DNA of 64,000 bases. Origin: Escherichia coli. Lineage in GTDB: Bacteria > Pseudomonadota > Gammaproteobacteria > Enterobacterales > Enterobacteriaceae. A program made the position numbers and the translations under genes. The number at the start of each line of letters is the position of its first letter. Positions within the stretch are counted from its first letter, which is position 1. Shown piece after piece: positions 24,811 to 58,296 of the stretch. The DNA is taken from the NCBI RefSeq assembly GCF_965641715.1, contig NZ_OZ282453.1, one strand, 5' to 3'. The notes below the pieces were generated by a model that was given only the letters and a program-made list of their open reading frames with translations, did no database searches and had not been told where the DNA came from.

Positions 24811-24879
24811 AATTACCTCTCGCTTTTCTGCAATAAAAAAGGCACCATTTCTGGTGCCCTTATCTGGGTTATAAATATT

Positions 24880-36611: not shown

Positions 36612-36619
36612 GAATCCCC

Positions 36620-36925: not shown

Positions 36926-36936
36926 TTGGGCAACCT

Positions 36937-37125: not shown

Positions 37126-37175
37126 GATTCTTTCACCTGTCAGAACAGGGGCGCACTTCTGCGCCCCCTGAATGA

Positions 37176-38381: not shown

Positions 38382-38395
38382 CGTATTTCTCCTGA

Positions 38396-40265: not shown

Positions 40266-40447
40266 TATTTACCTCCGCCGACAGACGGCTGTGTACGGTC
40301 GAGATATCGCGCCACCAGCCACGACCAGAACAGGCACAGCCCCCCGGCAACAACAAAACCCGCCGGGGGATAAATCAGCCAGGCACCATACGCCAGCAAA
40401 AGCGCACCCAGCACGCCCACCAGTGGTGCGAGAATTATCAGAAACAT
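40265..40447 (-). CDS. Small two-helix membrane protein between terL and portal
   Basis: 60 aa [49 protein letters not shown]; two hydrophobic helices. Confidence 0.35.
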
Positions 40448-41195: not shown

Positions 41196-41270
41196 GAATA
41201 TTTCAAGTTTTTTAAAATCACCTGTATATCAATCATTTAAAATGAAAAAACAGTCTTTATAAATCATCGA

Positions 41271-41292
41271 GCAATACACAGCGCAATACACG
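41271..41292. repeat. Tandem GCAATACACAG / CGCAATACACG motif near the satellite left end; candidate integrase arm site
   Basis: Same motif occurs as a tandem pair at 56094-56116 beside the int start. Confidence 0.45.
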
Positions 41293-41479
41293 TATCTGTA
41301 TTGTTTTAATGCTGATACACACCGTTTTTTGATACAGTGATTCGACCTACCATCGCGAAGCATTTTTTATTTCTTGTGTGTAACAATCTGACGAGGTGAG
41401 CACTCAAAGAGATAAGAGGCAGTAGAAATTTCGATCCCCCCCCTGAATGCAATTTTTCGTATATATATATACAAAACAG

Positions 41480-41636
41480 TGCGGGTTATGCGGGTTAGCG
41501 GGTTATCTTCGCGTGCTAAGTATTTTTTACTCTTTAATATCAATACGTTAAAAAACAACGTATCTAAATATCAGCCAGAATGTAACCCGCAAGACATTCA
41601 AAATAACCCGCAAACACCACTCAAATAACCCGCAAA
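41480..41636. repeat. Iteron cluster B: three direct TGCGGGTTAT-like copies and three inverted ATAACCCGCAA copies around an AT-rich spacer
   Basis: Direct copies at 41480-41508; inverted at 41582-41591, 41603-41613, 41626-41636; same consensus as cluster A. Confidence 0.6.
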
Positions 41637-41714
41637 AACATCCCTGAAAGTGGGTGCCGATAATACTGAAAATTTATTCCATTAAATGAGCATTGTCCTC
41701 TCTCATCCATTCCG

Positions 41715-43376: not shown

Positions 43377-43716
43377 GCTCGTCCTCTTCCTCTGTTTCCG
43401 GTGGATTTCTGCGGCGACTTACCGGGTCAAAACCCAGCAAAGAAGCCATTTTGATCATTATTCTTTCAGCGTCAGCCTTTGCGCTCAGGGCGGGGTTTCT
43501 GCTCTCGCTGCCCTGACTGTTAACAATGCTGAACCCGCGCGTGGCAAGGTCTTCGACGGCTTTGCGGTATATGGAGTAGTTAACGCAATACAGCTCCAGA
43601 TTGCTCCAGTCGGCGGGGGTAAGGTCTTCCCGTCCGGAAAGCTGGCGCGATTTTTCCTTCCACTGCCTGACCGCGATTTCATCCAGGTAAGCGGGGGCTT
43701 TTGGTGGTCTTGCCAT
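43360..43716 (-). CDS. Terminase small subunit, P27-like (satellite copy)
   Basis: ORF 43360-43857; likely start MARPPKAPAYLDEIAVRQWKEK; homologous to prophage TerS at 57273-57755. Confidence 0.75.
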   Translation of the reverse strand: MARPPKAPAYLDEIAVRQWKEKSRQLSGREDLTPADWSNLELYCVNYSIYRKAVEDLATRGFSIVNSQGSESRNPALSAKADAERIMIKMASLLGFDPVSRRRNPPETEEEDELDRLA

Positions 43717-43814
43717 GTTCTTTTTTCGCCCAATTATTTTCAAAAAAATTCCCGTGCACAAAAATTTGAGGAGGCGGTCGGTGTCCGGCAGGGACGGTTT
43801 TGTCCTGAAAACCT

Positions 43815-43825
43815 CCCCCCCCCCC
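43815..43825. repeat. Homopolymeric C11 tract between satellite HNH and terS
   Basis: Counted directly: 11 consecutive C on the plus strand, about 100 bp upstream of the terS start. Confidence 0.6.
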
Positions 43826-43835
43826 TCTGACGGCC

Positions 43836-44021
43836 TCACCAGCGATTGCGAAAACATTCCATGACCTCGCGGTCACGGTCGGTTAATCGCTTCGCTGTGG
43901 TGCGTTCTGTGCGCCCTGTCCTGTTGGCTTTGTGCCCTGTCTCCTGTGTCTTCCATAAGTCACGCTGCCTTATCAGTCCACGTATCAGCCTGTTTTGCTC
44001 CTGTTCAGTCATCATCGCCAT
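43836..44021 (-). CDS. Small hypothetical ORF between HNH and terS
   Basis: About 61 aa MAMMTEQEQNRLIRGLIRQRDLW...; basic protein; may not be expressed. Confidence 0.25.
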   Translation of the reverse strand: MAMMTEQEQNRLIRGLIRQRDLWKTQETGHKANRTGRTERTTAKRLTDRDREVMECFRNRW

Positions 44022-44445
44022 ACATCCAGTCGTTACGGTGTGCCGCCCGTTCTTCCTGCTCGCGATACATACCCGCCTTACGGTTCGCTTTCGTGGCTGG
44101 ATCTTCCCGTGTTGTCTTACGGTTATGGCACGTCTGGCACAATGCCTGGTGGTTCCACTCAGGCCAGAAGAGAACATCACCGCCGCCATTGATGGGAATG
44201 ATGTGATCCACCACAAGAGCTGGCGTATAAATCCCCTTAGCCAGACAACGCACGCATAACGGATTTTTGCTCAGGTACAGGGCGCGGTATTTGTCCCACT
44301 GTCGGGAATACCCGCGCGCGCGGCGGTGTCCCCGTCTGGCATCCTCTGCACGCCATGCAGCCCGCCTGTGATCTTCGCACTTGCCGGACTTCACGCGCTT
44401 ATTACAGCCCGGCTCAGTGCATCGCCTTAATGGTTGCCACGGCAT
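44005..44445 (-). CDS. HNH endonuclease (packaging-associated, satellite copy)
   Basis: 146 aa; Cys-rich HNH core VDHIIPINGGGD...CQTCHNRKT; sits next to terS. Confidence 0.85.
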   Translation of the reverse strand: MPWQPLRRCTEPGCNKRVKSGKCEDHRRAAWRAEDARRGHRRARGYSRQWDKYRALYLSKNPLCVRCLAKGIYTPALVVDHIIPINGGGDVLFWPEWNHQALCQTCHNRKTTREDPATKANRKAGMYREQEERAAHRNDWMYGDDD

Positions 44446-44744
44446 CAGTACACCCCTACATCACGATAAACCGACCAGAGCGCAGAAATAGCCATAGGCA
44501 GTTCAGACTGCTCCACAGGTGAAACCGCTTCCCTGTTCTCGTACAGGAAAGCGATGTACATCAGGCAACCAACACGTATTGCCGGGGTAAATTCCAGCCC
44601 GTCTTCAAAACGTTTCCCGATATGCTTCTGGCAGGCTTCCAGCGCCGCATCGGTATACATTTTCAGAAGTTCGCCCTCACCTGAGAAGTCATCAAGGCGA
44701 AGATGTGCCCTGACTTCATCAGGTGTAATTTTTTCTTCACTCAT
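44445..44744 (-). CDS. gp6-like head-tail connector protein (satellite copy)
   Basis: ORF 44445-44825; likely start MSEEKITPDEVRAHLRLDDFSGEGELLKMYTDAALEA. Confidence 0.6.
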   Translation of the reverse strand: MSEEKITPDEVRAHLRLDDFSGEGELLKMYTDAALEACQKHIGKRFEDGLEFTPAIRVGCLMYIAFLYENREAVSPVEQSELPMAISALWSVYRDVGVY

Positions 44745-46041
44745 CTTTTTCACCTTTAATTTCCACCGTCTGCTTCCATGCCTGGCTGAACTCGTCACCA
44801 CCTTCACGCGGCGGCATCCCCTCACGTTCGCGGGCTTCGTTCGGATTCATGATCCCGTTCTTAATCCCTTTCTCATACGTGGCGTAACGCTCGGTTGGAG
44901 TAGCGCGCAGTAAATCGGCTGAATCAAACTCAACCAGATAACGGGTACCAGGTATGGGAGAAGCCACCAGCAAAGCGGCCTTAATTTGCTGTTCGAAGTT
45001 CGCCAGCCATGGGCGCATTGTCATGGTCAGAAACGCGCGGCTTGCCTCACTGAAATTGCTGTAGGTGCTGTTGCTGTATTCCTGAAGAAAAATCGGCGAC
45101 ACGTTGAACATCCGGGCGATGTCTTCAATGGAGAAGCGACGGGAGGCCAGCCATTCTGCATCCTGGTTACTCATCCCCAGTTGCTTGTAATCCATACCCC
45201 CTTCAAGGATTGGCGTTTTTCCGGCATTTTTCGCCCCCTTGTAGCGTTCCAGGGCGTCTAATGCCTGTTTACCTTTCACGCCGTCCAGCCATTCGCCTGA
45301 CGTGATAATCCCTGCCGCCATCATGCCATCTTTCATAATGCTGGCTCCGTGACGCTGTTGAGCAAGGCCAAGCCCCAGCGCCTCACGGCAAATCGTGACA
45401 GGGGAGCGCCCCAGAAAGCCATCATCCGAGGCATAGCGGAGATGCAGAACTTCTTCCTGCAAATACGTGCGCACCGTTCCTGTATAGGGTTCGGTGATGG
45501 TATAGCGGTATTTGTGTGCGCCAGTGCGTTCCGGTACAACACACCCCGGCGCATAAGGATGAAGTGATTTTGGCTGACCGTCCCGCCCCCACTCAATAAC
45601 CGCATAGGCGTTACCGTTCAGCAGGCAGTGACGCATCATTGTGCGTTTAAACTGGTAAGGTGTCTGGCACGAATTAGGCTGCTCATTCAGCAGAATATCG
45701 ACCGGGTGACTGTCCAGCCATTCCCGCGCCTCCCTGCCCTTGTCATTGCGTACCAGATACAGATAACACGGCATCGTGGCCACCGCCTCAGCGATGACAG
45801 AAACCGCGTTCATCACAGCAGGCAATGATTCAGCCGTCCCGGCAGAAACATATTCTCCGGATCCGGTATTCGGTACGCCGGACAGCGCCAGAAAATCATC
45901 AATGGACAGGTTACGCAGATCGCTTTTTTTACGACTAAAAGGCCACCACATATCACAACCCCGCCAGTTCAGCCCAGCGATGACGATTATTTCCTGTCGG
46001 GCGTAATTCAGGGTGCTGTGCAAACAACGAACGGTGGGCAA
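44737..46041 (-). CDS. Portal protein, HK97 family (satellite copy)
   Basis: 434-aa ORF; FSIEDIARMFNVSPIFL region; true start may be MWWPF near 45951. Confidence 0.85.
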   Translation of the reverse strand: MPTVRCLHSTLNYARQEIIVIAGLNWRGCDMWWPFSRKKSDLRNLSIDDFLALSGVPNTGSGEYVSAGTAESLPAVMNAVSVIAEAVATMPCYLYLVRNDKGREAREWLDSHPVDILLNEQPNSCQTPYQFKRTMMRHCLLNGNAYAVIEWGRDGQPKSLHPYAPGCVVPERTGAHKYRYTITEPYTGTVRTYLQEEVLHLRYASDDGFLGRSPVTICREALGLGLAQQRHGASIMKDGMMAAGIITSGEWLDGVKGKQALDALERYKGAKNAGKTPILEGGMDYKQLGMSNQDAEWLASRRFSIEDIARMFNVSPIFLQEYSNSTYSNFSEASRAFLTMTMRPWLANFEQQIKAALLVASPIPGTRYLVEFDSADLLRATPTERYATYEKGIKNGIMNPNEAREREGMPPREGGDEFSQAWKQTVEIKGEKDE

Positions 46042-46513
46042 TCTCCACGCCGGATTCGGGATAAGCAGGCATCGACGTTATCGTGATTTCACGGAGTTCT
46101 GCGGCGGTAACAGTGCGCAGATACGGTTTTTGCGCGATATTCCACTCTTCGCATAATGCGCGAAAGCCAAAGCTCATTCCTGTAATGTCGCCACGCTCCA
46201 CCAGCGTAAGCACATCTTTTCCAAGCTGGGTATCAGGCGGTGTCAGTTCAAAACGTAGCCCGGTGTTGTCCTCAGTCAGTACCAGTGTTCCGGATTTGGT
46301 GCGCCCCAGCAGTCGGGTATAGTCATGCTCATACAGGCAGCGCACATCATTACCCGCCGCCAGATAGTCAGCAAAAGCCCCCGGCGTGAACTGTTCGCGG
46401 AATTCGTCCCAGATAATTTCTGAAAGGCTGTTCCAGCGAACGGCATACCCCACCAGCTTTTTATTGCTGGCGGTCAGTTCAGATGTGCGGATTTCAAAAT
46501 CGGTGTTTTTCAT
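45953..46513 (-). CDS. Prohead protease, HK97 family (satellite copy)
   Basis: 186 aa; VGYAVRWNSLSE...FTPGAF motif region. Confidence 0.85.
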   Translation of the reverse strand: MKNTDFEIRTSELTASNKKLVGYAVRWNSLSEIIWDEFREQFTPGAFADYLAAGNDVRCLYEHDYTRLLGRTKSGTLVLTEDNTGLRFELTPPDTQLGKDVLTLVERGDITGMSFGFRALCEEWNIAQKPYLRTVTAAELREITITSMPAYPESGVEIAHRSLFAQHPELRPTGNNRHRWAELAGL

Positions 46514-46567
46514 CGGTGTACTCCATAAAGCTGAAAAAGGAGGCCGCAGCCTCCTCCTTACTCATGA

Positions 46568-47737
46568 CTAGCCAGCTTTCATTTCCAGAATTTTGATGGC
46601 GTTTGAATCCACCACACCACCGCCCAGATATTTATCCGTGTGGACCTTGTAGAATCCGGGCTCAGTAATGTTGTCCGGTCGGGTGCGAATCCCTGTTACA
46701 TGATCAACGATGAAATAACCACGACTGAAATCGCCAACCGCTAGCGGTGCTTTTCCTGCGCCGATGTCCGGCATGGACTCCAGGCAGAAAACAGGACGAC
46801 CAAGCAACATATCCGGCGCACCTTCTTTAAGGCTGTCGCGCCAGATATAATCGCCATTCTCATTTTTCAGCTTCTGTAGTGTCCCTGCCGTGCCCGAGTT
46901 CATCACCCAGACGGCATTTTTGCGGTATTTCGCTTTCAGCTTGTAGAGAATGTCGATCAGTTCGTCCGCTGTAATGGCGGTTCCACTTGCCGCTACCACT
47001 TTTTCAATGGTGCCAAAAGCGCGGGTTTTGTCACTGGTCGCCGCACGGGTGTAAGCCATGAAGCCTTTCGGCTTGCCGTTACCGTCGCCATTAACAAAAT
47101 CATCCTCTTCGGTGCTGGCGAACGTGTCGGCAATTTCGGAGGATAACCAGCCCAGAATATCCACCTCTGAAAAATCCAGGATTTCCTGCGTGGTTTTCGG
47201 GTAGGCGTAGATCGGATTCAGCTTGATGGTTACACGTTCAATTTTCGGGGTGTTGGTTTCACTACGTGCGCAGCCTTCTGTGCCTCGTCCTACAGTTGCG
47301 CCGCCAGTGGAAACCAGTTTCTGAAACTCATTTGATTTTGCGGTCTTCACGGTCGCGATCACGCGCATAACACTGTCATCCTGTAGCTGGCGCATGACTT
47401 CGCGATCAAGCTCAGGAATTACGGTATATCCGCCATCCCTGCCGCTGTCAGTGCTGGTGGACAGTGATCGCACATCTCCGGTTACGATGTAGTTACGCAA
47501 TTCATCAGATGATAATTTCTGGATGCCCGTTCCTGGCTTGCTGCGTTCTTCATCAGCCACAGACTCGAGGCGGTAAATTTCTGTGTCGAGGGAATCGGCT
47601 TTTGCACGCAGTTCATCAAACTGTTTGCCCTCGTCATCGTTCAGGCTGCGGTTTTCACTGTCGGCTTTTTCCAGCAGGGATCGCATCTGGTTTTTCAGGG
47701 CGGTTTTTTGCTGGCGGAGTTCGATTAATTTCTTCAT
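46568..47737 (-). CDS. Major capsid protein, HK97 family (satellite copy)
   Basis: 389 aa; coiled-coil delta domain; GDGNGKPKGF motif; diverged from prophage copy. Confidence 0.9.
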   Translation of the reverse strand: MKKLIELRQQKTALKNQMRSLLEKADSENRSLNDDEGKQFDELRAKADSLDTEIYRLESVADEERSKPGTGIQKLSSDELRNYIVTGDVRSLSTSTDSGRDGGYTVIPELDREVMRQLQDDSVMRVIATVKTAKSNEFQKLVSTGGATVGRGTEGCARSETNTPKIERVTIKLNPIYAYPKTTQEILDFSEVDILGWLSSEIADTFASTEEDDFVNGDGNGKPKGFMAYTRAATSDKTRAFGTIEKVVAASGTAITADELIDILYKLKAKYRKNAVWVMNSGTAGTLQKLKNENGDYIWRDSLKEGAPDMLLGRPVFCLESMPDIGAGKAPLAVGDFSRGYFIVDHVTGIRTRPDNITEPGFYKVHTDKYLGGGVVDSNAIKILEMKAG

Positions 47738-47973
47738 GAAGGTTTTCTCGTATTGGTTAAGATTCAGGACGTGAAACCAACACGGAGGGAGCGCCGCCCG
47801 ACACTCTCGGCATCTCGCAGATCAACCCGGCATCGCGCAGGGGGTCAGGCGGCATTGTGGCGGCTCACGTCTGAGTGCCACACGCCAACATATACATAAA
47901 AATCAGTATGTAAACATCAGCCAGAATCACCGAACAACCTGGAACAACCACGAACAAATAATTTACAAAACCT

Positions 47974-48000
47974 GAAAAAAAGACCTGGAGAAAATCCAGG
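47974..48000 (-). terminator. Rho-independent terminator separating the satellite replication block from its capsid operon
   Basis: Hairpin CCTGGA-gaaaa-TCCAGG followed on the minus strand by TCTTTTTTT; lies between the 82-aa ORF and the capsid gene. Confidence 0.5.
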
Positions 48001-48011
48001 CCTTTATCGCT

Positions 48012-48260
48012 TTATTGTTTCACTGGATCCCGCATTCTGCGTCTTATTTTCCACAGATATTCGATCATCGCTTCCACCTGCTCACGATTGGTTGCGAAAA
48101 TTTCCCCGGTCAGTGAGCTGCGCAGAAAATCATGATGATCCACAACAAACAACGCATCGGAAGAAAGCAGACGGCGATATTTTTTTGCTGTCGTGGTTTC
48201 CAGATCATCAAAACCATGAAACTTTTTATGTTGCTGGACTTCTTCAAATGTCACTGGCAT
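48012..48260 (-). CDS. Hypothetical small protein
   Basis: 82-aa ORF MPVTFEEVQQHKKFHGFDDLETT... Confidence 0.4.
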   Translation of the reverse strand: MPVTFEEVQQHKKFHGFDDLETTTAKKYRRLLSSDALFVVDHHDFLRSSLTGEIFATNREQVEAMIEYLWKIRRRMRDPVKQ

Positions 48261-48793
48261 GTATCCCCCTTTGCCGCCCGGCGCTGGCGCTTGTGCTTCT
48301 CATTCAGCGCCATCAGCCGCGTTTCTGCCTCCTGCTGTTCCTGTGGTGTCACTTCCCCACATGGCTGGCCTTTCAGGTCGTATCGTACCCCACCAGCAAC
48401 CAGGGCGCGGTAATAGCGCGGAGACTGCGCATAAGATGCCAGCGTCGCACGTAATGCCCCCGGCCCGAATGCCAGCCCCCTGACGGCGAGATCCTGCATC
48501 AGGTCGTCGAATATCCCCACCTTAAGCGGCTTCGGTGCTTCCCTGTTGAATAAGTCAGGCCACATCTCAGTGAGGCGGTTAACGCGCCTGCGGTTTTTGC
48601 GCTGGCGTTTGGTCATATGCCGCCACGGTGTCACCCCTGTGGGCTGCCCTTTGCGGCTCTGCTGTGCGTTCTGATTGCCGGGTATCACTTTATGCGCCGA
48701 TGTGGTTTTATCCCGCTCTTGCGCCGCCTGCGTCGTTTTCTGCGGCGTGCCGTAAATGCCTTTCGGTTTTCGGTTAATGGTCAGCTTTGTCAT
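48251..48793 (-). CDS. FinO/ProQ-domain RNA-binding protein (putative)
   Basis: 180 aa; PLKVGIFDDLMQDL...RATLASYAQSPRYYRALVAGGVRYDLKGQPCGEVT matches the ProQ/FinO N-domain pattern from memory. Confidence 0.55.
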   Translation of the reverse strand: MTKLTINRKPKGIYGTPQKTTQAAQERDKTTSAHKVIPGNQNAQQSRKGQPTGVTPWRHMTKRQRKNRRRVNRLTEMWPDLFNREAPKPLKVGIFDDLMQDLAVRGLAFGPGALRATLASYAQSPRYYRALVAGGVRYDLKGQPCGEVTPQEQQEAETRLMALNEKHKRQRRAAKGDTCQ

Positions 48794-48957
48794 GCCTTCC
48801 CCTGTAATTACTCTGTTCGCTGTTGTGAATTAAAACGGTATGTTATCCCCGTACAGGTCATCGTGCTGGCCTGTCTGTTGTTTTGCCCTGTTCAGTGCGT
48901 CAGTGGCCTGCCCCTGTTGGCCTTTTTTGCCGCCCGGTCGCGCCGTTCTCGCACTGA

Positions 48958-49254
48958 TTACGCTGTCTGCGATGACCTGCCAGCCCTGCCGCGTTTCGCC
49001 GTTCTGCCCTGTCCACTGCTTACCTGCATGTTACCCGCCACGCTCACCAGTTCGCCTTTGCGGTGTTTTGCCAGTGCGTCGGCCTGTCTGCCAAACGCCA
49101 GGACGGATAACCACATCGTCGCCGTTCCGTCATCTGCCTGGCTGCATGGCAGGGGAACCGCCATACTCGCCATCGCCATTTGTGTTCCCTTGCTGGTGGT
49201 CTTTAACTGCGGGTCAGCCACCAGCCGCCCGTAAGCCGCTATCTGTGCTGTCAT
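48958..49254 (-). CDS. SSB-like OB-fold protein (short)
   Basis: 98 aa; GRLVADPQLKTTSKGTQMAMASMAV...WLSVLAFGRQADALAKHRKGELVSVAGNMQ follows the SSB OB-fold pattern. Confidence 0.4.
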   Translation of the reverse strand: MTAQIAAYGRLVADPQLKTTSKGTQMAMASMAVPLPCSQADDGTATMWLSVLAFGRQADALAKHRKGELVSVAGNMQVSSGQGRTAKRGRAGRSSQTA

Positions 49255-49317
49255 GCTGTCTGCTCTCCGGTTTTAACGTTGATGGTTACGCTTGTTTACA
49301 CCCTTACGGTGAAATTC

Positions 49318-49442
49318 TGCGGGTTATAATCGCACTTTTGCGGGTTATAACTGCCGTTTTGCGGGTTACGTGCGGGTTATTGATTTCCTTTTTATTCATA
49401 CAGTTAATGCACTTATATACATGATAACCCGCATAACCCGCA
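49318..49442. repeat. Iteron cluster A (candidate satellite replication origin): four direct TGCGGGTTAT-like copies, an AT-rich spacer, two inverted copies
   Basis: Direct copies at 49318, 49339, 49359, 49371; inverted ATAACCCGCATAACCCGCAA at 49423-49442; immediately 3' of the primase gene. Confidence 0.65.
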
Positions 49443-49464
49443 ACTTTTCACCTCACACAGGGGG

Positions 49465-51588
49465 TTAATCTTCTGCCTCAGGCTGGAACATCAGCACGTA
49501 AAAAACATGCTGCTTCCCCCCAATTTTGCCGAGCGCCTTTTTCTTGTAACGGCGATCGTTACCCGCTTCCAGCATTCCGGCAGCACTCAACGCGCGGGCA
49601 AAGTGAGACGGATTAAATCCCTGTGCTATCTCACCCTCAAATACATGCGGGAACGTGTAAAAACGGAACTCGTCATCTTCGTTTCTGATACTCCCCTTTC
49701 TGTATCCGGCAAGTTCTTTAATCGATAAATCACGCTCGTCGGTATTGGGCCACGGAAGGTATCTGCTGAATCCGAACGACGCTAAAAAAGCTTCTGCCTG
49801 TTCAACCATCTGTTTAAATTCCCTGTTACCCGTGCCGAACTCCTTCACCCAGGCATTAAAATTATGCTGTATGGCATCGCGGCATTCCTGCTCATCCCAG
49901 CCAGTAACATGACCTGAAAGCACAAGCGCGGCCTCCAGTATGGCAAATCGCTCCCCCACACGGTGAACCTGTTCGCCGTAGCTCTCCGGTATCAGGTTGC
50001 GCCACCGCTCACGGCATGTCCTTACCGTGTCCTTTGCCTCCTGCTGGTGTTCTGCCAGCCATTTAACCCACTCACGACCCGCCGCCCCGTGATTTTCTGT
50101 CCAGGCATCCTTTAACGCGTCTGCGTGCGCCTTTCCGGTGCTGTATTCGTGAAATTGCGTGGCTTTTTCCATCGGAACGTTAAGCAGGCGGACAAGCTGC
50201 CCCGCTTTGACTTTTATCCCCTCCGTTTTGAGGAATGTCTCAACGTCCATTTCTCCGGTGCTGATTGCCACCGTGCGCCAGTGTTTGATCTCCCTGTTGC
50301 CGCCGTCCTTCGCCCCCTGTAATTTCCCCGAACCGTTAAACAGCGTATAGGCTGACGTGGACACCTCCCGCGCGTTTCCGGCCTGGCCTATTTCATCCAG
50401 GGGTAAAAGCCCGTCATTGTGTGCCTCTGCTTCGTTGGCGATACCTAACGCTGTGCCGTACCAGGTCAGCCGCTGCGCGTCCGGCTCTCCCCATAAACTT
50501 GATGCGATGTTCTGTGTGGTGGTTTTCCCTGCCGATGACTGTTCGAAAAGATGTACCCCGAAGCCGTCAGCGCCCACCAGCCCGATTAATGGTGCGGATA
50601 ACGATACCGCCACACCCAGCATCATGGACGGATTACCACCAGCCAGCCGCGCAACGGTATCGCGCCAGCCCTCCGCCGTTCCTGCCACGGAATAGCCATT
50701 AACAGCAGCCGTTTTTCCGGTAAACAGGACTGGCTTTTCGCAATCACCAATGACCGAACCGTCCGGCATGATGTACGCGCCAAAATGCCAGCCCGTTGTT
50801 GTGCTTAACTGCCATTCCTCATGGCTTCCGCTTAACTGCATCCAGTCAGCCAGGATAGCCCTGTATTTACCGTTGGTTGTTACGTTCAGTCCGTGGTCTT
50901 TCAGCAACCGCCAGCCGTCACGGTCGCCAATGCCACCGCACGGAACCGCCATTGTGATGACTTCATGGTTTGCTAATTTTTTCCAGCGCATCACGCGGTA
51001 ATGCTCTTTACCGATTGTCCCCGTTCCCAGTAGTTCAAGCGGGGAACATAACCACGTCTCAGGCCGGATAATTTCGCCTGACTGCTTATCCACTTTTGGC
51101 GTTACCCAGAAAACACCATCGGCGCGACTTTCAACGCGGGGCTTTAATTCATCATCGCCCTGGATTTCTGTGATTTTTTTCTTTAAGGGCAACACCAGAC
51201 TTTCCCCGCGCTCGTATTCGTCTTTGAGGCGAGGCAACTGGTCGGATAAATCCGCCGGGCTGATGTCAGTTATCCCCGCGTATTCGTATACGGTCTTCAC
51301 GCCAGCCACAGCCAGCAACGTGACGATCTGTGTAAGGCTACGTTCAGTGATGTGCCCTGCGCGGTAAACACGCACACACTGACGGCTATCATCAATAATT
51401 TGATAACCGGTAATATCTTTCAGGTGTTCATCTGACAGAACGACAGGCGGCACATTGTCGGCGGCAATATGCTTACCTGCCCATTCCTGCCACTCTTTCG
51501 CATGGCTCCACGCATCACTACCCGCAAAGATGATAACCTCCGTCATTTTGTCGGCTGGCTGGTGCTTTAAGTTTGGTGCGCGCTTCAT
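49465..51588 (-). CDS. Replication primase/helicase with P-loop NTPase
   Basis: 707 aa; Walker A-like SSAGKTT; largest non-structural gene; adjacent to iterons. Confidence 0.75.
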   Translation of the reverse strand: MKRAPNLKHQPADKMTEVIIFAGSDAWSHAKEWQEWAGKHIAADNVPPVVLSDEHLKDITGYQIIDDSRQCVRVYRAGHITERSLTQIVTLLAVAGVKTVYEYAGITDISPADLSDQLPRLKDEYERGESLVLPLKKKITEIQGDDELKPRVESRADGVFWVTPKVDKQSGEIIRPETWLCSPLELLGTGTIGKEHYRVMRWKKLANHEVITMAVPCGGIGDRDGWRLLKDHGLNVTTNGKYRAILADWMQLSGSHEEWQLSTTTGWHFGAYIMPDGSVIGDCEKPVLFTGKTAAVNGYSVAGTAEGWRDTVARLAGGNPSMMLGVAVSLSAPLIGLVGADGFGVHLFEQSSAGKTTTQNIASSLWGEPDAQRLTWYGTALGIANEAEAHNDGLLPLDEIGQAGNAREVSTSAYTLFNGSGKLQGAKDGGNREIKHWRTVAISTGEMDVETFLKTEGIKVKAGQLVRLLNVPMEKATQFHEYSTGKAHADALKDAWTENHGAAGREWVKWLAEHQQEAKDTVRTCRERWRNLIPESYGEQVHRVGERFAILEAALVLSGHVTGWDEQECRDAIQHNFNAWVKEFGTGNREFKQMVEQAEAFLASFGFSRYLPWPNTDERDLSIKELAGYRKGSIRNEDDEFRFYTFPHVFEGEIAQGFNPSHFARALSAAGMLEAGNDRRYKKKALGKIGGKQHVFYVLMFQPEAED

Positions 51589-51899
51589 TTTGCCTTTCCC
51601 CGTTCACGAATAATTTCACGTACTGCCTTAATGCGTTCCATTCCTGTAACGCGCATGATTCTGTCGATGTCGCTTAATTCTGCTGGTGGTGCTTTACTTA
51701 CCAAGGTGAACTCCCTGTCAAAGCGCATATGTGACGACACGCAGGGATGCGCATAACCTTCGCGGATATAGGTCACACGAAAATCATCGACGGTTTTGAT
51801 CGTTATCGTGCTGCCGTATTTATCCTGGAAAATATCGCCGGGGCGGATTTCAGGCCGAGCGGGGCCGCTGGCAGTAAAGCCAGAATTTTTCTTTTTCAT
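51585..51899 (-). CDS. Hypothetical protein
   Basis: 104-aa ORF directly upstream of and overlapping the primase start. Confidence 0.45.
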   Translation of the reverse strand: MKKKNSGFTASGPARPEIRPGDIFQDKYGSTITIKTVDDFRVTYIREGYAHPCVSSHMRFDREFTLVSKAPPAELSDIDRIMRVTGMERIKAVREIIRERGKAK

Positions 51900-51904
51900 G
51901 TTTT

Positions 51905-52153
51905 TTACTCCAGAGGCAGCTTTTTAGCGGCGAGCTCAATATCAGATGTCAGAGAAACCTGTGTATTTGCCAGGTCTAACAACAAAGAAATAAGAATTTC
52001 TTCTCTGCTATCGGATTTATCGGTGCTAAGGCTGTTCATCCACATATTGACGACTTCCCTGATTTTTTTCGCAGAGTGCAGGGCTTCAAATGCCAGGTCT
52101 TCAATATCATGTTTATTTCGCATAATCGCCCCCGCCATTTTCACAATCAGCAA
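51905..52153 (-). CDS. Hypothetical small protein
   Basis: 82-aa ORF. Confidence 0.35.
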   Translation of the reverse strand: MLIVKMAGAIMRNKHDIEDLAFEALHSAKKIREVVNMWMNSLSTDKSDSREEILISLLLDLANTQVSLTSDIELAAKKLPLE

Positions 52154-52358
52154 TCAGGATGGCTTTTGCCTCATTCAGCGCCATATCAGCACTAAATTGC
52201 ATAACAGCCAGTGAGTGAGGAACGAAAGCCCCGGCATATTCTGTTTCGCTGGTGGCGTGCTTATGCGCCTTGTCTGCGATAACAGAAATATCAATCAGCG
52301 CGTGCATCAGCGTTTTGATGGCTTCGGCGGCTGCGTCCGGACGGGTGTTATTGCACAT
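52113..52358 (-). CDS. Hypothetical small protein
   Basis: 81-aa ORF. Confidence 0.35.
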   Translation of the reverse strand: MCNNTRPDAAAEAIKTLMHALIDISVIADKAHKHATSETEYAGAFVPHSLAVMQFSADMALNEAKAILIADCENGGGDYAK

Positions 52359-52554
52359 GGCGCACCTCCTGACGAATACGGGCAGCGAATACCATCACGC
52401 AGCCAGCCGGGGATTGCTGGCGTGCTTCCTGTTCGCTAGTGGCCTCAATGGTAATCACACGCGGTTGTGCCGTGCTCAGGGCGATAAAACGCCAGATGTA
52501 TTTATTCAGGTTGTGCGAGTCCCGCCCTTGCGGGTGTGTGGTATGATTTAACAT
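52348..52554 (-). CDS. Small Icd-like protein (putative host cell division inhibitor family)
   Basis: ATG at 52554 with GAGGT ribosome-binding site 7 nt upstream; 68 aa ending ...SEQEARQQ...FAARIRQEVRHVQ; family assignment is from memory. Confidence 0.45.
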   Translation of the reverse strand: MLNHTTHPQGRDSHNLNKYIWRFIALSTAQPRVITIEATSEQEARQQSPAGCVMVFAARIRQEVRHVQ

Positions 52555-52750
52555 AGCTACCTCGATAATCTTGCTATCGTTGGTGGTTAGAAGCCCGGTT
52601 AGTGTTAGCGCACTGCCGGGTTTCGTCGTTTGTATTTCAATAAAACCATTGGTGTGTTTCATGTTATTTTGGAGTGAAACACACGTCAAGCCTTTTTTGT
52701 ATTTCTTTTTTGTGTATACTGAAACACACCAAATTTGAGGAGTTTCAGTT

Positions 52751-53056
52751 ATGGCGACTACCAACAAAAACGCTAAATCACAATTGACCACCGTCAGAGT
52801 CCCCCACGATGTTATGGAGGGCATGGAATCCGTAAAACTGGACGGCGAAAGCAACGCCGGATTCATAGTAACCGCCATGCGCGGTGAGATCGCCCGCCGC
52901 CAGGCAGAAGGAAGCGGAGAAAATCCCCTGGTTTCTTCGCTCGATGCACTGGCGCAGGTGGAAAAAATTGGAGTCAAGGCTGCCGAGGAGATCGGGCAAC
53001 TCGTCACCGTCGCGCGTGAAGAACTCCAGCGACGCAAGGTCAAAGAGCAGGAATAG
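52751..53056 (+). CDS. Putative transcriptional regulator, divergently transcribed
   Basis: ATG at 52751 with GAGGA ribosome-binding site 9 nt upstream; 101 aa; only confident plus-strand gene in the satellite. Confidence 0.55.
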   Translation: MATTNKNAKSQLTTVRVPHDVMEGMESVKLDGESNAGFIVTAMRGEIARRQAEGSGENPLVSSLDALAQVEKIGVKAAEEIGQLVTVAREELQRRKVKEQE

Positions 53057-53113
53057 CCACTATCAGCGCCATAGTTTGAGGAACGCAGGCGCATTGCTTT
53101 ACAGGACAGCACC

Positions 53114-53293
53114 ATGAGCGACACAGAATCAACCAAAACACCATCACCAACTCGTAAGAGACGACGCAAAAATATAGCGCATGAACATGAATCAGAAAGA
53201 TTCGCACCTTGTTCGTTTGCTCTTGAGAAATTCCTTAAAGAGCACAGGAAAAAGCTCTCGTTGCAAACCTTGGAACGAACCAAATCTGACTGA
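53114..53293 (+). CDS. Small basic protein (possible)
   Basis: 59-aa ORF MSDTESTKTPSPTRKRRRKN... below the ORF-track cutoff; followed by terminators. Confidence 0.3.
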   Translation: MSDTESTKTPSPTRKRRRKNIAHEHESERFAPCSFALEKFLKEHRKKLSLQTLERTKSD

Positions 53294-53358
53294 TCACATT
53301 GCCCACCAGCCGCAAATGTGGCATTGTTGGTGATGCTTTTGTTTTCCCTTGTTCCCAC

Positions 53359-53388
53359 TGGCGACCCTTTTGCGGTCGCCTTTGTTTT
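53359..53388 (+). terminator. Rho-independent terminator of the plus-strand cassette
   Basis: Hairpin GGCGACC-cttttgc-GGTCGCC followed by TTTGTTTTG; a second hairpin plus T-run at about 53484-53515. Confidence 0.45.
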
Positions 53389-53673
53389 GCCTGTTATCCG
53401 GCAATAGTGGCGCTTCGTCACCTGTCTGATATAATTCCACAGCTTATATTCATTTTTTGCGCAGTAGGTTAATTGTTCGCAAGGGCGCTCCGGCAACGGG
53501 GCGCTTTTTGTTTTTACCCACCAGCACAATAAAAATCTTCATTTTCCATTTTTGTAAAATTTCATGCTTTCCGGACGACTGGTCATATGTCATTTTTTAG
53601 CAGAAGATTTTGCCTTGCTGGTGGGTAGCTTCCCGGTCAACACGATGTACCGTATAATCAACACCGCGTGTGG

Positions 53674-54252
53674 TTACTGAATACGCTCACCAAAGTAAAA
53701 CTCAGGCTGGTATTCACGTATCAGCCTTTTTTCTTCTTCCTCCAGCTCACGCTTTTTGCGCTTACATGCCTGTAGCTCCCTCCCCTTCTCACTGGCACTT
53801 ATCTGGTATTGCTCTTTGCGGCGGGAAAAATCCTGTAATGCGCCCCACGGGATACCATAAGCCCCCGTTTTTCTGATACCCGGTATCACATTTCTGAATA
53901 CCCAGTTACTGAAACGATGAGCAAATGTGCCAGGCGTCGTTGCTTTGCGGCTGCGGGCTATTAGTTTGTAGAAACCTGACTCGGAGATAATGCTCATATT
54001 CTGATTTCCTCCGGGGGTGTAAGTTAAATTTACTCCCTTTTCGTCATCATCAAGCATCTGCAACGCCGTACGCGAATTGGTCAATTCCAGCGCAGCACAA
54101 ACATCCTTTGCAACAAACCACGGATCGCCGTTTAGATACACCACACGAACATCCACGCCATCAAAGCGCAGAACGACCAGATCACGAATATCACAGAATT
54201 TTTTCACATGACGTGCGTCACCCTTGCCCGTCACGGCAATATTTTTATTCAT
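53674..54252 (-). CDS. Bro-N domain protein (antirepressor-like)
   Basis: 192 aa; Bro-N pattern RVVYLNGDPWFVAKDVCAALEL...ISESGFYKLIARSRK; C-terminal charged coiled coil. Confidence 0.65.
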   Translation of the reverse strand: MNKNIAVTGKGDARHVKKFCDIRDLVVLRFDGVDVRVVYLNGDPWFVAKDVCAALELTNSRTALQMLDDDEKGVNLTYTPGGNQNMSIISESGFYKLIARSRKATTPGTFAHRFSNWVFRNVIPGIRKTGAYGIPWGALQDFSRRKEQYQISASEKGRELQACKRKKRELEEEEKRLIREYQPEFYFGERIQ

Positions 54253-54309
54253 TGCTTTTTACCTCACATACAAAAAACCCCGCATTGCGTGGTGCGGGGT
54301 TGTCGGTAA

Positions 54310-54588
54310 TTACTTATTGGCGTTTTTGTATGGGCTGTTTACTTCCTTTACTCCTGGCGGATGCATAACCCACCAGAGCACATCAGAGAGCAACCAGGAA
54401 ACAGACACTTTCCCTAAATGAGCACGAGCAGGAAATGCTCCCTCCTGTTCAAGTACCCAACGTCTGCTTCTTGAAAGCCCGGTACGATTGGCACACTCAT
54501 GTTCGCGTATACGGCGATCATACGGTTCGCCATGATCTTTCAGAATCTGAATGCGTTCTTCGGGTGTAGGATAAATAAATTTTTGCAT
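54310..54588 (-). CDS. AlpA-like HTH regulator (second copy)
   Basis: ORF 54310-54618; HTH region ECANRTGLSRSRRWVLEQEGAFPARAHLG. Confidence 0.5.
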   Translation of the reverse strand: MQKFIYPTPEERIQILKDHGEPYDRRIREHECANRTGLSRSRRWVLEQEGAFPARAHLGKVSVSWLLSDVLWWVMHPPGVKEVNSPYKNANK

Positions 54589-54651
54589 AAAAATATCACC
54601 TATAAAAAAACCCGCCAAAAGACGGGTTGATTATATCTCATTTAATTTAGC

Positions 54652-54822
54652 TCAGGGTTTCCATTCACCTTTTACCCATTCCAGCACCTCAGATAAGCGC
54701 CAGACTTTTGTTTGTGGGCCAATACATATTTTTCGTGGAAATTTTCCTTCCTTTTCAAGTAACGATCTGTGTCTCCTGCCAAGAGCGGTTAACCATGCAC
54801 ATTCATCCTCCTTAATCATCCT
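54652..54822 (-). CDS. alpA: AlpA-family excisionase/regulator
   Basis: ORF 54652-54885; HTH WLTALGRRHRSLLEKEGKFPRKICIGPQTKVW; directly downstream of int. Confidence 0.65.
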   Translation of the reverse strand, partial: RMIKEDECAWLTALGRRHRSLLEKEGKFPRKICIGPQTKVWRLSEVLEWVKGEWKP

Positions 54823-54850
54823 GTCGATTGTTTCATCATTTTCAAGTTCT

Positions 54851-56074
54851 TCACGCGTAACTATTTGAATCATTACTGTCACCACTAATTTGCTTATTCA
54901 GATAGTCGTACCACCAGTTCATAGCTTCTTTTTTTCTGTCCATATACTGGCTTCTGTTATAAACCCCGGCAACACCGCCTAATGTGTGCCCAAGCAACTG
55001 TTCAACCACATTATGTTCAAAACCATGATCACTTAGTTTTGTGGCAAACACTCTTCGCATATCATGCGCCGTCCATTTCTCCGAGTGTTTCATCCTTTTC
55101 CATGTCTTACCGATAGTTACGCTTGCCGTACACTGACGCATATCAAACCCAATCACATTTTCTTTGTTACCTGTTATTTTTTTTAACGTAACTAACCAGT
55201 TAAACATGCCATCAGGAATCGGTCTGATTATTTCCCTGCCATTTTTGCTATGATCAGCGGGAACGCGCCATAATTTCTTATCAAAATCCCACTCTACCCA
55301 GGACGACAGTAATACTTCTGACAGTCGACAACCAAAAACTACCAGGAAACGTAAAATAATTCGGTTTTCATATGATAATTCGTGATTGTCATAATCAGTA
55401 TTAATACTTCGCCATAAATCTCTGATTTCATCATCTGTTAAAACCCTGCTTCTTCGCGCAGACTTTTTTCCCACATCACAGACCTCAAGATCATCAATTT
55501 CATGACTAATCGCGTATTTTCTTACCCTACAAAATTTAAGCGCCTGTTTTGATATACGCAACAAAGCTCCGGCCTGTACAGGTGCTACTTTTTTTATTTT
55601 GTCAAAACACTTAATCCACATAGATATAGAGCAATCACTAAGTGGTACATGACCAATCACCGGATAAATATGTTTACCAAAGCACTGCCTGATATGTTCT
55701 GCTCCCCTACGCTTATCCATTGCATAATTATCAAGCCAGTATTCAAGTGCCTCACGAACGGTAACAGGTTGCAAGGTGGCTTCCCGTTCAATTTTTATCT
55801 GAATCCGTGGATCTCTGCCCTCCGCAAGCCAGGTTCGACACTGATCGCGCATCTCTCTCGCTGATTTGAGACTCAGATCAGGATATTTTCCAAGTGTCAG
55901 CCAGATGGGCGCGGTTCCCCTTCCCGCCAGTCTGTAAAAGAAAACAAAACTAACACATCCGTATTTACTGACCCGTACCGAAAGCCCGTTACCATCAGCG
56001 ATGGTTTCCTGCCTCTCACTCCTGCGCCCAAGCAGGGAACGAAGTTTTTTATCGCTCAGTTTGTTTAGCGCCAT
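54851..56074 (-). CDS. int: Tyrosine integrase, P4 type
   Basis: ORF 54851-56110; likely start MALNKLSDKKL; arm-binding N-domain; catalytic C-domain with HxxR and terminal Tyr region. Confidence 0.9.
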   Translation of the reverse strand: MALNKLSDKKLRSLLGRRSERQETIADGNGLSVRVSKYGCVSFVFFYRLAGRGTAPIWLTLGKYPDLSLKSAREMRDQCRTWLAEGRDPRIQIKIEREATLQPVTVREALEYWLDNYAMDKRRGAEHIRQCFGKHIYPVIGHVPLSDCSISMWIKCFDKIKKVAPVQAGALLRISKQALKFCRVRKYAISHEIDDLEVCDVGKKSARRSRVLTDDEIRDLWRSINTDYDNHELSYENRIILRFLVVFGCRLSEVLLSSWVEWDFDKKLWRVPADHSKNGREIIRPIPDGMFNWLVTLKKITGNKENVIGFDMRQCTASVTIGKTWKRMKHSEKWTAHDMRRVFATKLSDHGFEHNVVEQLLGHTLGGVAGVYNRSQYMDRKKEAMNWWYDYLNKQISGDSNDSNSYA

Positions 56075-56093
56075 GTGATTTATAACCCGTTTT

Positions 56094-56116
56094 TGCAATA
56101 CACAGTGCAATACACA
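56094..56116. repeat. Tandem TGCAATACACAG x2 near the satellite right end; candidate integrase arm site
   Basis: Same motif as 41271-41292; 20-40 bp upstream of the int start. Confidence 0.45.
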
Positions 56117-56245
56117 AATGATGAAAACAGCCAGAACCTTCCAGAAAAAACAAAAACGACGAACAAGAAAAAATCTTTTTCTTTCATTTGGTTACTAAAA
56201 AAATCAGGACAGGTCGCACTGTTGTTACGGCGTGATGTTACTTTC

Positions 56246-57273
56246 TTTGTGAAAAAATTCACCCGCGCCGAGACCTGCTCCTTCGCCTTTTTCGCCAGAC
56301 GACGCAGATCATCCCAGCGTTTACAGATGCCCAGGCCGGGATTCGCTTTCTGCCAGACCGTTTCATCAAACGGATCATCTCCCTCATCGAGCGTGTAAAT
56401 GATCGCAAAGTAAGAGTCGTCTTTTACCGCGCCCTCCACGTCACTGTTATAGCCACGCAATACCTTAATGGCGTAATCACGCTGCTCGTAACAAATCCCT
56501 TCCTTGTTAAACCCTGCCGTGGTGATACCAAATAAAAGGGACTGCAGACGGGCACCGGTTGCCGTTTCCAGAACGTCCCACACGTCACGGGTTTTATGTG
56601 CATGCAGCTCATCAATAATGGCGCAGTGGATGTTCAGACCGTCCAGGTTGTTTGCATCCGAGGAAAGCGGTTCAAATTTTGATGCGCTCTGCTCCTGGTA
56701 GATCGCCAGCTTGTTGAAATCAAATAACCGCCCGAGTGTCGACCGGGCTTTTCTGACCATATTTTTGGCGTCTTCAAACACGATTCTGGCCTGGTCACGC
56801 GTGGTTGCGGCTGAATACACCTCAGCTCCACCTTCACCATCTGCCCCCGTCATATACAGGCCGATACCCGATGACAGAGTTGATTTTGCGTTTTTACGGG
56901 CGACTTCGTTGTACGCCGTCCGGAACCGGCGCACCATCACCGGACGTCCGCTGCCATCGCTGCGCATGACAACTTCCCCGGTCTCTTCATTCACCAGCGG
57001 AATGACAAAACCAAAAATATTAATGAGGATAAATACATGCCAGTCCATCAACTCAATGGGCTGGCCTGCCAGCGCCCCTTTTACATGAGGCACAAATTTG
57101 TAGAAATTCAGGATGTGCTGCGCACGGGGTTCACTGAAATAAATCCCCCGCTCTTCGCCGTACTTCAGATCATCAAGAAAACGCTGGCAGGCCAGACGGA
57201 CAAATTCCCCAGCAACAATTTCTCCTGCAACAACACGTTCGGCGTAGCGGATCCCGTCAGCCACTTTTGCCAT
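56246..57273 (-). pseudogene. Prophage terminase large subunit, N-terminal fragment (about 343 codons), interrupted by the satellite
   Basis: ORF 56080-57273; terminase ATPase region through ...ARVNFFTKK, then non-terminase read-through into satellite DNA. Confidence 0.8.
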
Positions 57274-57755
57274 CAGTCTCTCGCTTTTAAAAGCTCTGCC
57301 AGCGGATCAACATCATCCGGTCCGGCGATATTTACTTTCGCCCGGCTTGCCGGTGACATACCAAACTCTGCAAGCATTGCCCGGATCCGCTTCCAGGCAT
57401 CCGCTTTCATTGCCGCCGCGGGGTGCGCCTTAATCAGTACATCACCGCTCTGCGTTTCCGTGCGGTAGGTATACCCCTCAACATCGAGTGTTTCGCAGTG
57501 ATGCCGATATTCGGTGTAGGCTTCCACCAGCAACTCGAGCGCACGCGCATCAAGCTGAGAAATGATCCCTTCCGCATTCAGCTCTTCCGCCATTCGCCTG
57601 AACCAGTACTTCCCCTGAGCCCCTAAATGCTGCGGAATTTTAGGAAGACCTTTTTCATCCTTTTTAGCGGTTTTTTTGGGGTCTTTAACGGGGCGCTTTG
57701 AGGGATTGCCTCGTATCAAATGCAGGCGTGGCGGGGTTTTCGGAGGTCCTGACAT
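57273..57755 (-). CDS. Terminase small subunit, P27-like (prophage copy)
   Basis: 160 aa; overlaps terL start by 1 nt. Confidence 0.8.
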   Translation of the reverse strand: MSGPPKTPPRLHLIRGNPSKRPVKDPKKTAKKDEKGLPKIPQHLGAQGKYWFRRMAEELNAEGIISQLDARALELLVEAYTEYRHHCETLDVEGYTYRTETQSGDVLIKAHPAAAMKADAWKRIRAMLAEFGMSPASRAKVNIAGPDDVDPLAELLKARD

Positions 57756-57903
57756 AATCGGTTTTACCTATCAATCATTTAATCACATTCCCAAAAAAAA
57801 GTTTTCGAACCTGCGGCGATGCGAGGAAAGGTCAGGCGGCGGTACTGAGCAGCCAGGGCTGCAGAGATTTGACCCGCCCCTCCCCTACAGATGGGAACTG
57901 TTA

Positions 57904-58254
57904 TCAATTGATGCGTTCGCGTGCTGTTTTTGCTTTATGACAGGGGCAGCACAGACTCTGCAGGTTACTGTCTGCATCCGTGCCACCATGAGCTTTCGGA
58001 ATGATGTGGTCCACAGTTCTGGCTTCAACGGCTCTCCCATTGCGCATGCAGTTCTGACACAGATGATTATCACGCTTCAGTATGCGCGCACGTATGGCAT
58101 CCCATTTCGAGCCATAGCCACGCTGGTGGCGGCTCAGTCCGCGCTGATGCTGTACCCATCCTTCGCCACGATGTTTATCGCAGTAACCAGAACTGTCTGT
58201 GGTTGTACCTGCACATCCACGCTTACGGCAGGCGCGGGGGATTTGTGATGGCAT
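57904..58254 (-). CDS. HNH endonuclease (prophage copy)
   Basis: ORF 57904-58290; VDHIIPKAHGGTDADSNLQSLCCPCH. Confidence 0.8.
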   Translation of the reverse strand: MPSQIPRACRKRGCAGTTTDSSGYCDKHRGEGWVQHQRGLSRHQRGYGSKWDAIRARILKRDNHLCQNCMRNGRAVEARTVDHIIPKAHGGTDADSNLQSLCCPCHKAKTARERIN

Positions 58255-58296
58255 AGAATTTCGCTCCGCTAAAAAATATTCTGCTCTCACCGTCGG

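Follow-up and report, generated by a model that had tools for sequence, protein, structure and literature searches.

Helper-embedded PICIs (HE-PICIs) were defined at 14 sites in the late genes of prophages by Tommasini, Mageeney & Williams (NAR Genom Bioinform 2023; PMC10111431). One of these sites, designated A:Terminase_1:245 in the text of that paper and _246 in its tables, is represented by dozens of instances, and potB is among the loci at which the helpers of HE-PICIs reside. The listed elements include Eco33.15.A_Terminase_1_246 of E. coli 042 (FN554766.1/2250958-2235714; Supplementary File 1 of PMC10111431) and Eco8512.15 (CP027447.1/1392647-1377567). The core at the terL site occurs as ttaccaa, which is the commonest allele, tcacgaa, or tcacaaa, the last of which is found in 2 of ~58 entries, Eco14930.15 (15,055 bp) and Eco5051.15. 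A doubled motif, tgTGTATTGCantgTGTATTGCa, flanks the centre of attP, at 81 ± 2 bp on the upstream side and 132 ± 2 bp on the downstream side (PMC10111431).

The same authors used the term "regulated gene integrity" for the reversible disruption caused by HE-PICIs, and noted that many of the helpers appear truncated or degraded. They proposed that expression of the interrupted gene is delayed and that the satellite is passively transcribed with the late genes, and suggested that the helper gene that is interrupted might be backed up by a late gene captured by the satellite. The founding element, Eco567.11capE, is inserted in gene E, the capsid gene, of a lambda-like prophage, and measurements of the sequence of excision and replication exist for this HE-PICI alone; upon induction, the composite of helper and satellite excises, then replicates, and the satellite excises thereafter (PMC10111431). 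In the literature on helper-embedded satellites, induction data are confined to this capsid-site element.

The other relevant group is that of the capsid-forming PICIs (cf-PICIs), as typified by EcCIEDL933 (Alqurainy et al., 2023, bioRxiv 10.1101/2022.09.08.507074). Helper mutants in head or packaging genes lose transfer of the phage and keep transfer of the PICI, while helper mutants in the tape-measure or major-tail genes lose both. The packaging genes of EcCIEDL933 play no role in packaging of the helper phage, and the element is harmless to its helper. The cf-PICIs were reported from six chromosomal attB sites in which prophages are never found (bioRxiv 10.1101/2022.09.08.507074).

Here, we describe a satellite in a 64-kb stretch of E. 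coli DNA (the window) that is very probably a HE-PICI with the body of a cf-PICI, inserted site-specifically and reversibly in the terL gene of its helper prophage, from which it would need only tails. The preliminary description of the window held that this insertion site had not been described. In fact, it was published in 2023 as A:Terminase_1:245/246, with the elements of 042 and CP027447 and both tcacaaa elements among the instances (PMC10111431). The family, the site, the integrase clade and the core allele are already known, and the window contains another instance of them.

The interrupted terL gene and its uninterrupted homologs

The helper is an HK97-type lambdoid prophage integrated at potB. 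Its terL gene is present in two parts on either side of the satellite (Table 1), as the preliminary description had recognized. The N-terminal coding sequence runs on through the core to K343 (...ARVNFFTK), past which the open reading frame takes up 54 unrelated satellite codons before reaching a stop at 56080; the C-terminal frame (H-MNVWVTAES...) continues down to 40459 and lacks residues 1-343. At the two boundaries, there are exact copies of the 7-bp repeat previously noticed there, TTTGTGA on the plus strand and TCACAAA on the gene strand. The gene (minus) strand reads gaattttTTCACAAAgaaag from 56260 to 56241 and tattcTCACAAAacacatga from 41200 to 41181. The attP of the satellite brings no replacement sequence for the gene, so that the helper terL is disrupted. 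The satellite and the late operon of the helper have the same orientation.

Removal of positions 41196-56252 in silico (15,057 bp) produced a stop-free ORF of 1,758 nt encoding 585 residues, in agreement with the in-frame TerL of about 585 residues first claimed. Pfam places TerL_ATPase at residues 112-268 of this protein and TerL_nuclease at residues 283-563. The split point lies between the ATPase domain and the catalytic part of the nuclease domain; the N-terminal fragment contains the complete ATPase domain, and most of the nuclease domain is on the C-terminal fragment. The old single Terminase_1 profile is split in two in the current Pfam; the insertion falls at about position 61 of TerL_nuclease, in keeping with the published designation 245/246. 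The reconstructed helper TerL and the TerL of the satellite are 32% identical (E 4e-87), and their alignment crosses the junction without a gap, as had also been asserted.

Table 1. Coordinates of the satellite, its att sites and the neighbouring helper genes in the window
Feature	Position	Strand	Remarks
Helper late operon downstream of the insertion	21750..40447	-	Names from the collinear 042 and RM10740 prophages
Helper terL, C-terminal fragment	40459..41188	-	Last base of K343 and residues 344-585
attR crossover core TCACAAA	41189..41195	-	Flanking sequence almost the same as that published for attR of Eco14930.15
Satellite body	41196..56245	-	15,057 bp including one core copy; cf-PICI architecture, HE-PICI integration module
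Doubled arm motif TGTATTGCGCTGTGTATTGC	41271..41290	-	Distal attP arm
Satellite head and packaging module	41715..47737	-	PHROG matches, E 1e-28 to 6e-180
Satellite TerL	41715-43376	-	PHROG
Satellite TerS, P27-type	43360-43716	-	PHROG
Satellite HNH	44005-44445	-	PHROG
Satellite head-tail adaptor	44448-44744	-	PHROG
Satellite portal	44740-45951	-	PHROG
Satellite prohead protease	45953-46513	-	PHROG
Satellite major capsid	46568-47737	-	PHROG
Replication zone	48830..51899	-	DUF4222 gene, DUF927-type primase (49465-51588), ssb
Opposite-strand gene	52751-53056	+	Assigned to a PHROG family without known function
Bro-N anti-repressor-like gene (Bro zone)	53674..54252	-	phrog_2593, E 7e-86; 100% identical to the 042 copy
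Two AlpA-like excisionase/regulator genes	54310..54885 (54652-54885, 54310-54618)	-	phrog_2790
Satellite tyrosine integrase	54851..56074	-	407 aa from ATG at 56074; phrog_1, E 6e-57
Doubled arm motif TGTATTGCACTGTGTATTGC	56095..56114	-	Integrase-proximal attP arm
attL crossover core TCACAAA	56246..56252	-	Spans helper terL codons F341-T342-K343
Helper terL, N-terminal fragment upstream of the core	56253..57273	-	Residues 1-340 and first base of F341
Helper TerS (P27 family, 57273-57755) and HNH endonuclease	57273..58290	-	Directly upstream of the interrupted terL

A pair of 7-bp repeats 15 kb apart has no significance alone, and the comparisons with other genomes are decisive. The reconstructed TerL matches, at 585/585 residues, the TerL that is annotated as an intact protein in E. 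coli RM10740. The prophage of that strain occupies the same chromosomal locus as that of the window, adjoining potB/potA/pepT. We searched 5,426 complete E. coli genomes with the 269-nt reconstructed junction, which is present at 100% over its full length in five of them; at ≥80% coverage, it is found in 901 genomes, uninterrupted and annotated as "terminase large subunit". The gene is likewise uninterrupted in 11 sequenced phages, and is intact at 96-98% identity in the free temperate phages phi467, Evi and vB_EcoM-606R7. Occupied junctions are rarer, with attL in 35 and attR in 33 of the 5,426 genomes, and the attL-attR pairs are usually 15-16 kb apart. One of the occupied genomes is 042, in which the matches coincide with the coordinates of the listed HE-PICI; the genome nearest to the window at attL is CP027447 (99.7%). 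The preliminary description had proposed that the reconstructed protein be aligned with other terminases, and that other genomes be searched for the empty site and for the satellite in terL elsewhere; all three checks bore out the reconstruction. Neither of the outcomes that it named as refuting the claim was observed, since the junction does align with uninterrupted terminases and the gene is not split by nature in relatives. The reconstruction from sequence alone has been shown by this case to be workable.

At almost every base, the attL and attR of the window agree with the alignments in Supplementary Files 3 and 4 of PMC10111431. Over 407 aa, the integrase shares 99.75% identity with that of Eco33.15 in 042, and this pairwise identity to a listed member places it in the HE-PICI clade. 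Exactly two copies of tgTGTATTGCantgTGTATTGCa are present in the 64-kb window, one in each attP arm, compared with 0 expected from 100 shuffles. The doubled TGTATTGC is thus found in both arms at the published spacing: relative to the core centre, the proximal arm has half-site starts at +135 and +147, with the motif beginning ~133 bp downstream, and the distal arm has them at -98 and -86, with the motif ending ~79 bp upstream.

Judged by these sequence features, the window element is a member of the A:Terminase_1:245/246 group. It shares with the group the terL family and codon, attL and attR, the integrase, the TGTATTGC geometry, a size of ~15 kb, the organisation into zones and the potB helper locus. 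Nothing essential differs, although the window element has the rarer core allele TCACAAA. Compared with the HE-PICI of 042, the window element has a ProQ/FinO-like accessory gene in place of PerC, and its ssb is frameshifted. Eco567.11capE and the window element have an integrase of the same clade and the same arm motif, and both are inserted into the helper homologue of a gene that the satellite itself carries. However, 11capE targets a capsid gene, is 11 kb in size and has no terS or terL; it is presumed to use the packaging machinery of its helper, unlike the window satellite, which has its own terS and terL.

Gene content of the satellite and of the helper late region

All genes of the satellite but one run in the direction of the helper late operon (Table 1); in 042 and AST217, the annotation at the position corresponding to this exception is a YlcI/YnfO family protein. 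The four zones of HE-PICIs, namely integration (Int/AlpA), Bro, replication and late, are all recognizable. Both AlpA-like genes are 100% identical to their 042 copies, and strong hairpins resembling terminators come after the first (54628->54609) and the second (54301->54276). Small genes of unassigned function are located between the Bro and replication zones, and the ProQ/FinO-like gene lies between ssb and the major capsid gene. The frameshift in ssb is caused by a 1-nt deletion near 49018. The head and packaging genes all retain their full length and share 97-100% identity with their counterparts in 042; these include terS and terL, so that the claim that the satellite carries its own terminase holds.

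No tail, lysis, repressor, lambdoid immunity or Q genes were found among the genes of the satellite. A scan for sigma-70-like promoters returned fewer sites than in shuffled sequences. Using Rfam at the gathering threshold, we found no P4-type immunity RNAs (C4/isrK) in the Bro zone, and the only matches were two helper tRNAs. Nor was the satellite found in phage or virion records, where there were only ~76%-identical matches to the capsid and portal genes, for example in the 16.5-kb vB_KppS-Ant.

The body of the satellite has the properties by which cf-PICIs are recognized. Its left end contains an integrase, an AlpA-type regulator and a primase/replicase, and it encodes its own capsid, protease, portal, adaptor, HNH, TerS and TerL; since one adaptor/connector gene was recognized, the element has ~10 of the 11 SatelliteFinder core components. 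At 15,057 bp and without tail or lysis genes, it is of the expected ~10-15 kb. What sets it apart is the attB, which is located inside a prophage gene instead of at a prophage-free chromosomal site; that requirement is, however, a screening rule and not a mechanistic property. With EcCIEDL933, it has in common int, alpA, primase, capsid, protease, portal, adaptor, HNH, TerS and TerL, a size of ~15 kb, and the absence of tail and lysis genes. In contrast to EcCIEDL933, which spares its helper, the window element lodges in the helper and interrupts its terminase gene.

A chromosomal island of cf-PICI type in yifB of AST217 is 93.6% identical to the satellite body over 10.7 kb, and similar matches are present in many other genomes. 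The integrase of the yifB island is only 40% identical to that of the window, and the arm motif is absent there. The presence of the same body behind a different integrase at yifB shows that tropism for terL resides in a swappable module comprised of Int, AlpA and attP.

The late operon of the helper downstream of the insertion encodes the portal, protease, capsid, connectors, tail proteins, J and fibre. The window stops short of the early region of the helper, and our assessment of the helper genes refers to the late region only. Within it, the reading frame of the tape-measure gene contains an amber codon (TAG, 32164-32166) at the position of Gln607 in 042 (98.7% identity, no gaps), and the remaining late genes are full length.

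Apparent reversibility of the insertion and rival explanations

The preliminary description had concluded that the satellite knocks out terL. The gene is indeed split, but the permanence implied by the term is not borne out, since the parts required for excision are intact. The two cores are identical (7/7), and both arm motifs, the integrase and the two AlpA-like genes are preserved. We therefore regard the insertion as an apparently reversible disruption. The accompanying claim, that the satellite sits inside the reading frame of its helper's terL such that its removal restores an intact gene, is upheld: the element entered by site-specific recombination, and its clean removal restores terL.

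The strongest rival is that the knock-out is permanent, in which case a dead-end satellite would have fossilised a defective prophage from which nothing excises now. The in-frame TAG in the helper tape-measure gene and the frameshift in the satellite ssb both point in this direction, as does the observation of the HE-PICI authors that many helpers look truncated (PMC10111431). If the two lesions are real, the composite would be unable to make its own tails and may be stranded, and the window copy may no longer be mobile. However, the att cores and both doubled arm motifs are unaltered, and the integrase (99.75%) and both AlpA genes (100%) are intact and match those of 042. None of the head and packaging genes of the satellite is truncated, nor is any other late gene of the helper in the window, and the two halves of terL remain undecayed, as judged by the 585/585 match to the intact allele. 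We therefore consider a permanent knock-out to be unlikely, although its probability is not negligible.

It might also be argued that the insert derives from another HK97-like prophage that was once nested in the first, or arose when two prophages recombined, given that it contains a complete HK97-type head and packaging module with 30-36% identity to the helper in TerL, portal and capsid. Such an origin is highly improbable. Tail, lysis, repressor and Q genes are absent from the insert, and we detected neither the lysis, tail, immunity or early remnants nor the outward-pointing int that would mark a defective or nested prophage; instead, it follows the PICI order of Int-AlpA-Bro-primase-late with int pointing inward. 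A size of ~15 kb has been kept in at least 30 genomes, and the same body forms the discrete island at yifB. Furthermore, its junctions are at the 7-bp core beside the integrase and outside any stretch of homology, as the two terL genes share only 22/39 nt around the site. Homologous recombination between the two terL genes is ruled out by this low similarity around the site, together with the identity of only 32% of residues.

Finally, RefSeq annotates the C-terminal part separately in other genomes, as a "terminase TerL endonuclease subunit", but the idea that phages of this lineage have a split terL by nature, or that the split is an assembly artefact, has a vanishingly small probability and is refuted by the 901 empty-site genomes, the TerL of RM10740 and the 11 phages with an uninterrupted gene, by the occurrence of the break only where the 15-kb element is present, and by the same junctions in 33-35 independent complete assemblies.

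A proposed course of events and its consequences for the helper

The course of events that we propose for the reversible, site-specific insertion is modelled on 11capE and EcCIEDL933. The integrase recombined the 7-bp attP core TCACAAA with the same 7 bp at terL codons 341-343. Upon induction, the composite would excise and replicate, as in 11capE. By analogy, late transcription of the helper, modified by Q and resistant to terminators, would then read into the satellite; the hairpins after the alpA genes suggest that such transcription needs antitermination, which we assume. The satellite would subsequently excise precisely and restore the helper terL without a scar, and until it did so, the helper would be unable to package its own DNA. 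In the meantime, satellite DNA could be packaged by the satellite terminase into its own small capsids, and, as for EcCIEDL933, helper tails would be the only need. When the data on 11capE and EcCIEDL933 are combined, they suggest that the insertion delays or handicaps a helper function that is dispensable to the satellite. By sitting in the helper, the satellite would also be kept physically linked to its tail donor.

There are precedents for such timing in regulated gene integrity, or active lysogeny, of which phi10403S in Listeria comK and skin in Bacillus sigK are examples. As in those cases, an element with a tyrosine recombinase interrupts a gene without replacing it, and timed, precise excision would restore the gene. 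In contrast to phi10403S and skin, which interrupt host genes to the benefit of host or phage, the satellite interrupts a gene of another mobile element, and the timing here presumably serves the satellite.

The suggestion that a captured late gene backs up the interrupted gene of the helper conflicts with the packaging data for EcCIEDL933. We also considered that insertion in terL may itself be the means by which a cf-PICI that depends on tails alone interferes with its helper, although we regard this as a doubtful proposition. In that event, the composite would yield tails and satellite particles, with helper DNA left unpackaged until, or unless, the satellite excises. Moreover, a late-expressed TerL fragment, consisting of 343 residues and the 54-residue tail and limited to the ATPase, might poison the rings formed by TerL from restored copies. 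Tommasini, Mageeney & Williams proposed delayed expression in general terms, with no link to dependence on tails only and no mention of a dominant-negative fragment (PMC10111431).

The window adds one instance to the terL group of HE-PICIs, with a rare core allele and with signs of decay. It presents a parasite of a parasite, in which a satellite that carries its own packaging motor and head genes resides in the packaging-motor gene of its phage. The question it raises is whether cf-PICIs that are otherwise harmless might handicap their helpers through the inactivation of terL. Were this so, it would matter because cf-PICIs have otherwise been described as harmless to the helper.

The integrase match to a terminase profile

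Coordinates of the four genes discussed below are collected in the table. The integrase of the satellite, a PICI of the helper-embedded type (HE-PICI), matches the "terminase large subunit" profile phrog_9 through its residues 275-406, which align to profile positions 690-811 (E 2.6e-25). Genuine TerL matches positions 165-676 of the same profile, and the terminal stretch of phrog_9 appears to be integrase sequence. The probable source of this integrase tail is terL::int fusion ORFs mis-called at the same junction, since the table of a 2023 paper on HE-PICIs carries the remark "reannotate term_int fusion" for E. coli 042, a strain with an HE-PICI in terL (Tommasini, Mageeney & Williams, PMC10111431).

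Positions of the satellite and helper genes discussed in the text
Feature	Coordinates	Strand	Remark
Satellite integrase	54851-56074		
Satellite ssb gene	49254-48830	minus	
Satellite accessory gene, ProQ/FinO family-like	48251-48793	minus	AST217 annotation is ProQ/FinO
Helper tape-measure gene	~33984-30757	minus	

The helper prophage and other junction arrangements

On its chromosomal side, the helper prophage is flanked by pepT, roxA, potA, and potB (window ~16000-21700), and it is therefore integrated at the potB site. This locus is among the helper loci given in the 2023 paper (PMC10111431). Two tRNA genes, a tRNA-Arg (TCT) and a CAT-anticodon tRNA that was called as Met but is possibly Ile2, lie in the helper's interval between Q and the lysis genes (60859-61012, minus strand). 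Such genes are usual at this position in lambdoid prophages. As a separate observation, the attL and attR junctions in strain ETEC4090 (NZ_CP122620.1) are located at 3,033,723 and 2,884,895, respectively, and are thus ~149 kb apart, compared to the usual ~15 kb. This spacing suggests a chromosomal rearrangement, either through the composite or between prophages.

The helper tape-measure protein is 98.7% identical to that of 042, and its gene contains an in-frame amber codon (TAG; 32164-32166, minus strand) at the place occupied by Gln607 in the 042 protein. A sequencing error could be the source of this TAG. The amber codon itself would, by analogy with the gp14 tape-measure mutants in the published experiments on the capsid-forming PICI EcCIEDL933, abolish the tails of helper and satellite alike.

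The satellite body and its relative at yifB

In strain AST217 (NZ_AP043630.1), a replication, capsid, and packaging body that is 93.6% identical over 10.7 kb to window positions 41708-52372 is located in the chromosomal gene yifB. The AST217 island differs from the window satellite in that its integrase is 40% identical to that of the satellite, it has a single HTH gene, and it is without the TGTATTGC arm motif. Exchange between the two is bounded on one side within the Bro zone (~53500-52370) and on the other shortly after terL (~41700-41370).

Compared to the AST217 and 042 copies, the satellite ssb gene has a 1-nt deletion at ~49018; the frame is shifted past about residue 79, and the C-terminal tail (...DDLYGDNIPF) is lost. 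A variable accessory position separates the replication genes from the capsid genes; it is filled by the ProQ/FinO-like gene in the window satellite and by a PerC-family regulator in 042.

Directly 3′ of each of the two AlpA-like genes is a strong terminator-like hairpin carrying a T-run (at 54628-54609 and at 54301-54276, both on the minus strand). To reach the remaining satellite genes and the portal-to-tail genes of the helper, late transcription that enters from the helper terL would therefore need antitermination.

Core alleles at the terL site

The integrases of the window satellite and the 042 element are 99.75% identical and go with different 7-bp crossover cores, TCACAAA for the window and TTACCAA for 042. 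A third core, TCACGAA, is listed for the same site group (supplement, PMC10111431). The three cores differ from one another synonymously at the F-T-K codons, and the attL core equals the attR core within each element (window, 042, and the supplement of the 2023 paper). The satellite's own terL carries TCACCAA at its homologous L-T-K codons (42448-42454, minus strand), which differs at one position from the core in the window and at one from TTACCAA, the commonest core. Its flanks diverge from those of the helper terL site, with identity at 22 of 39 nt. Which alleles of helper terL are accessible to a given satellite may depend on the core allele.
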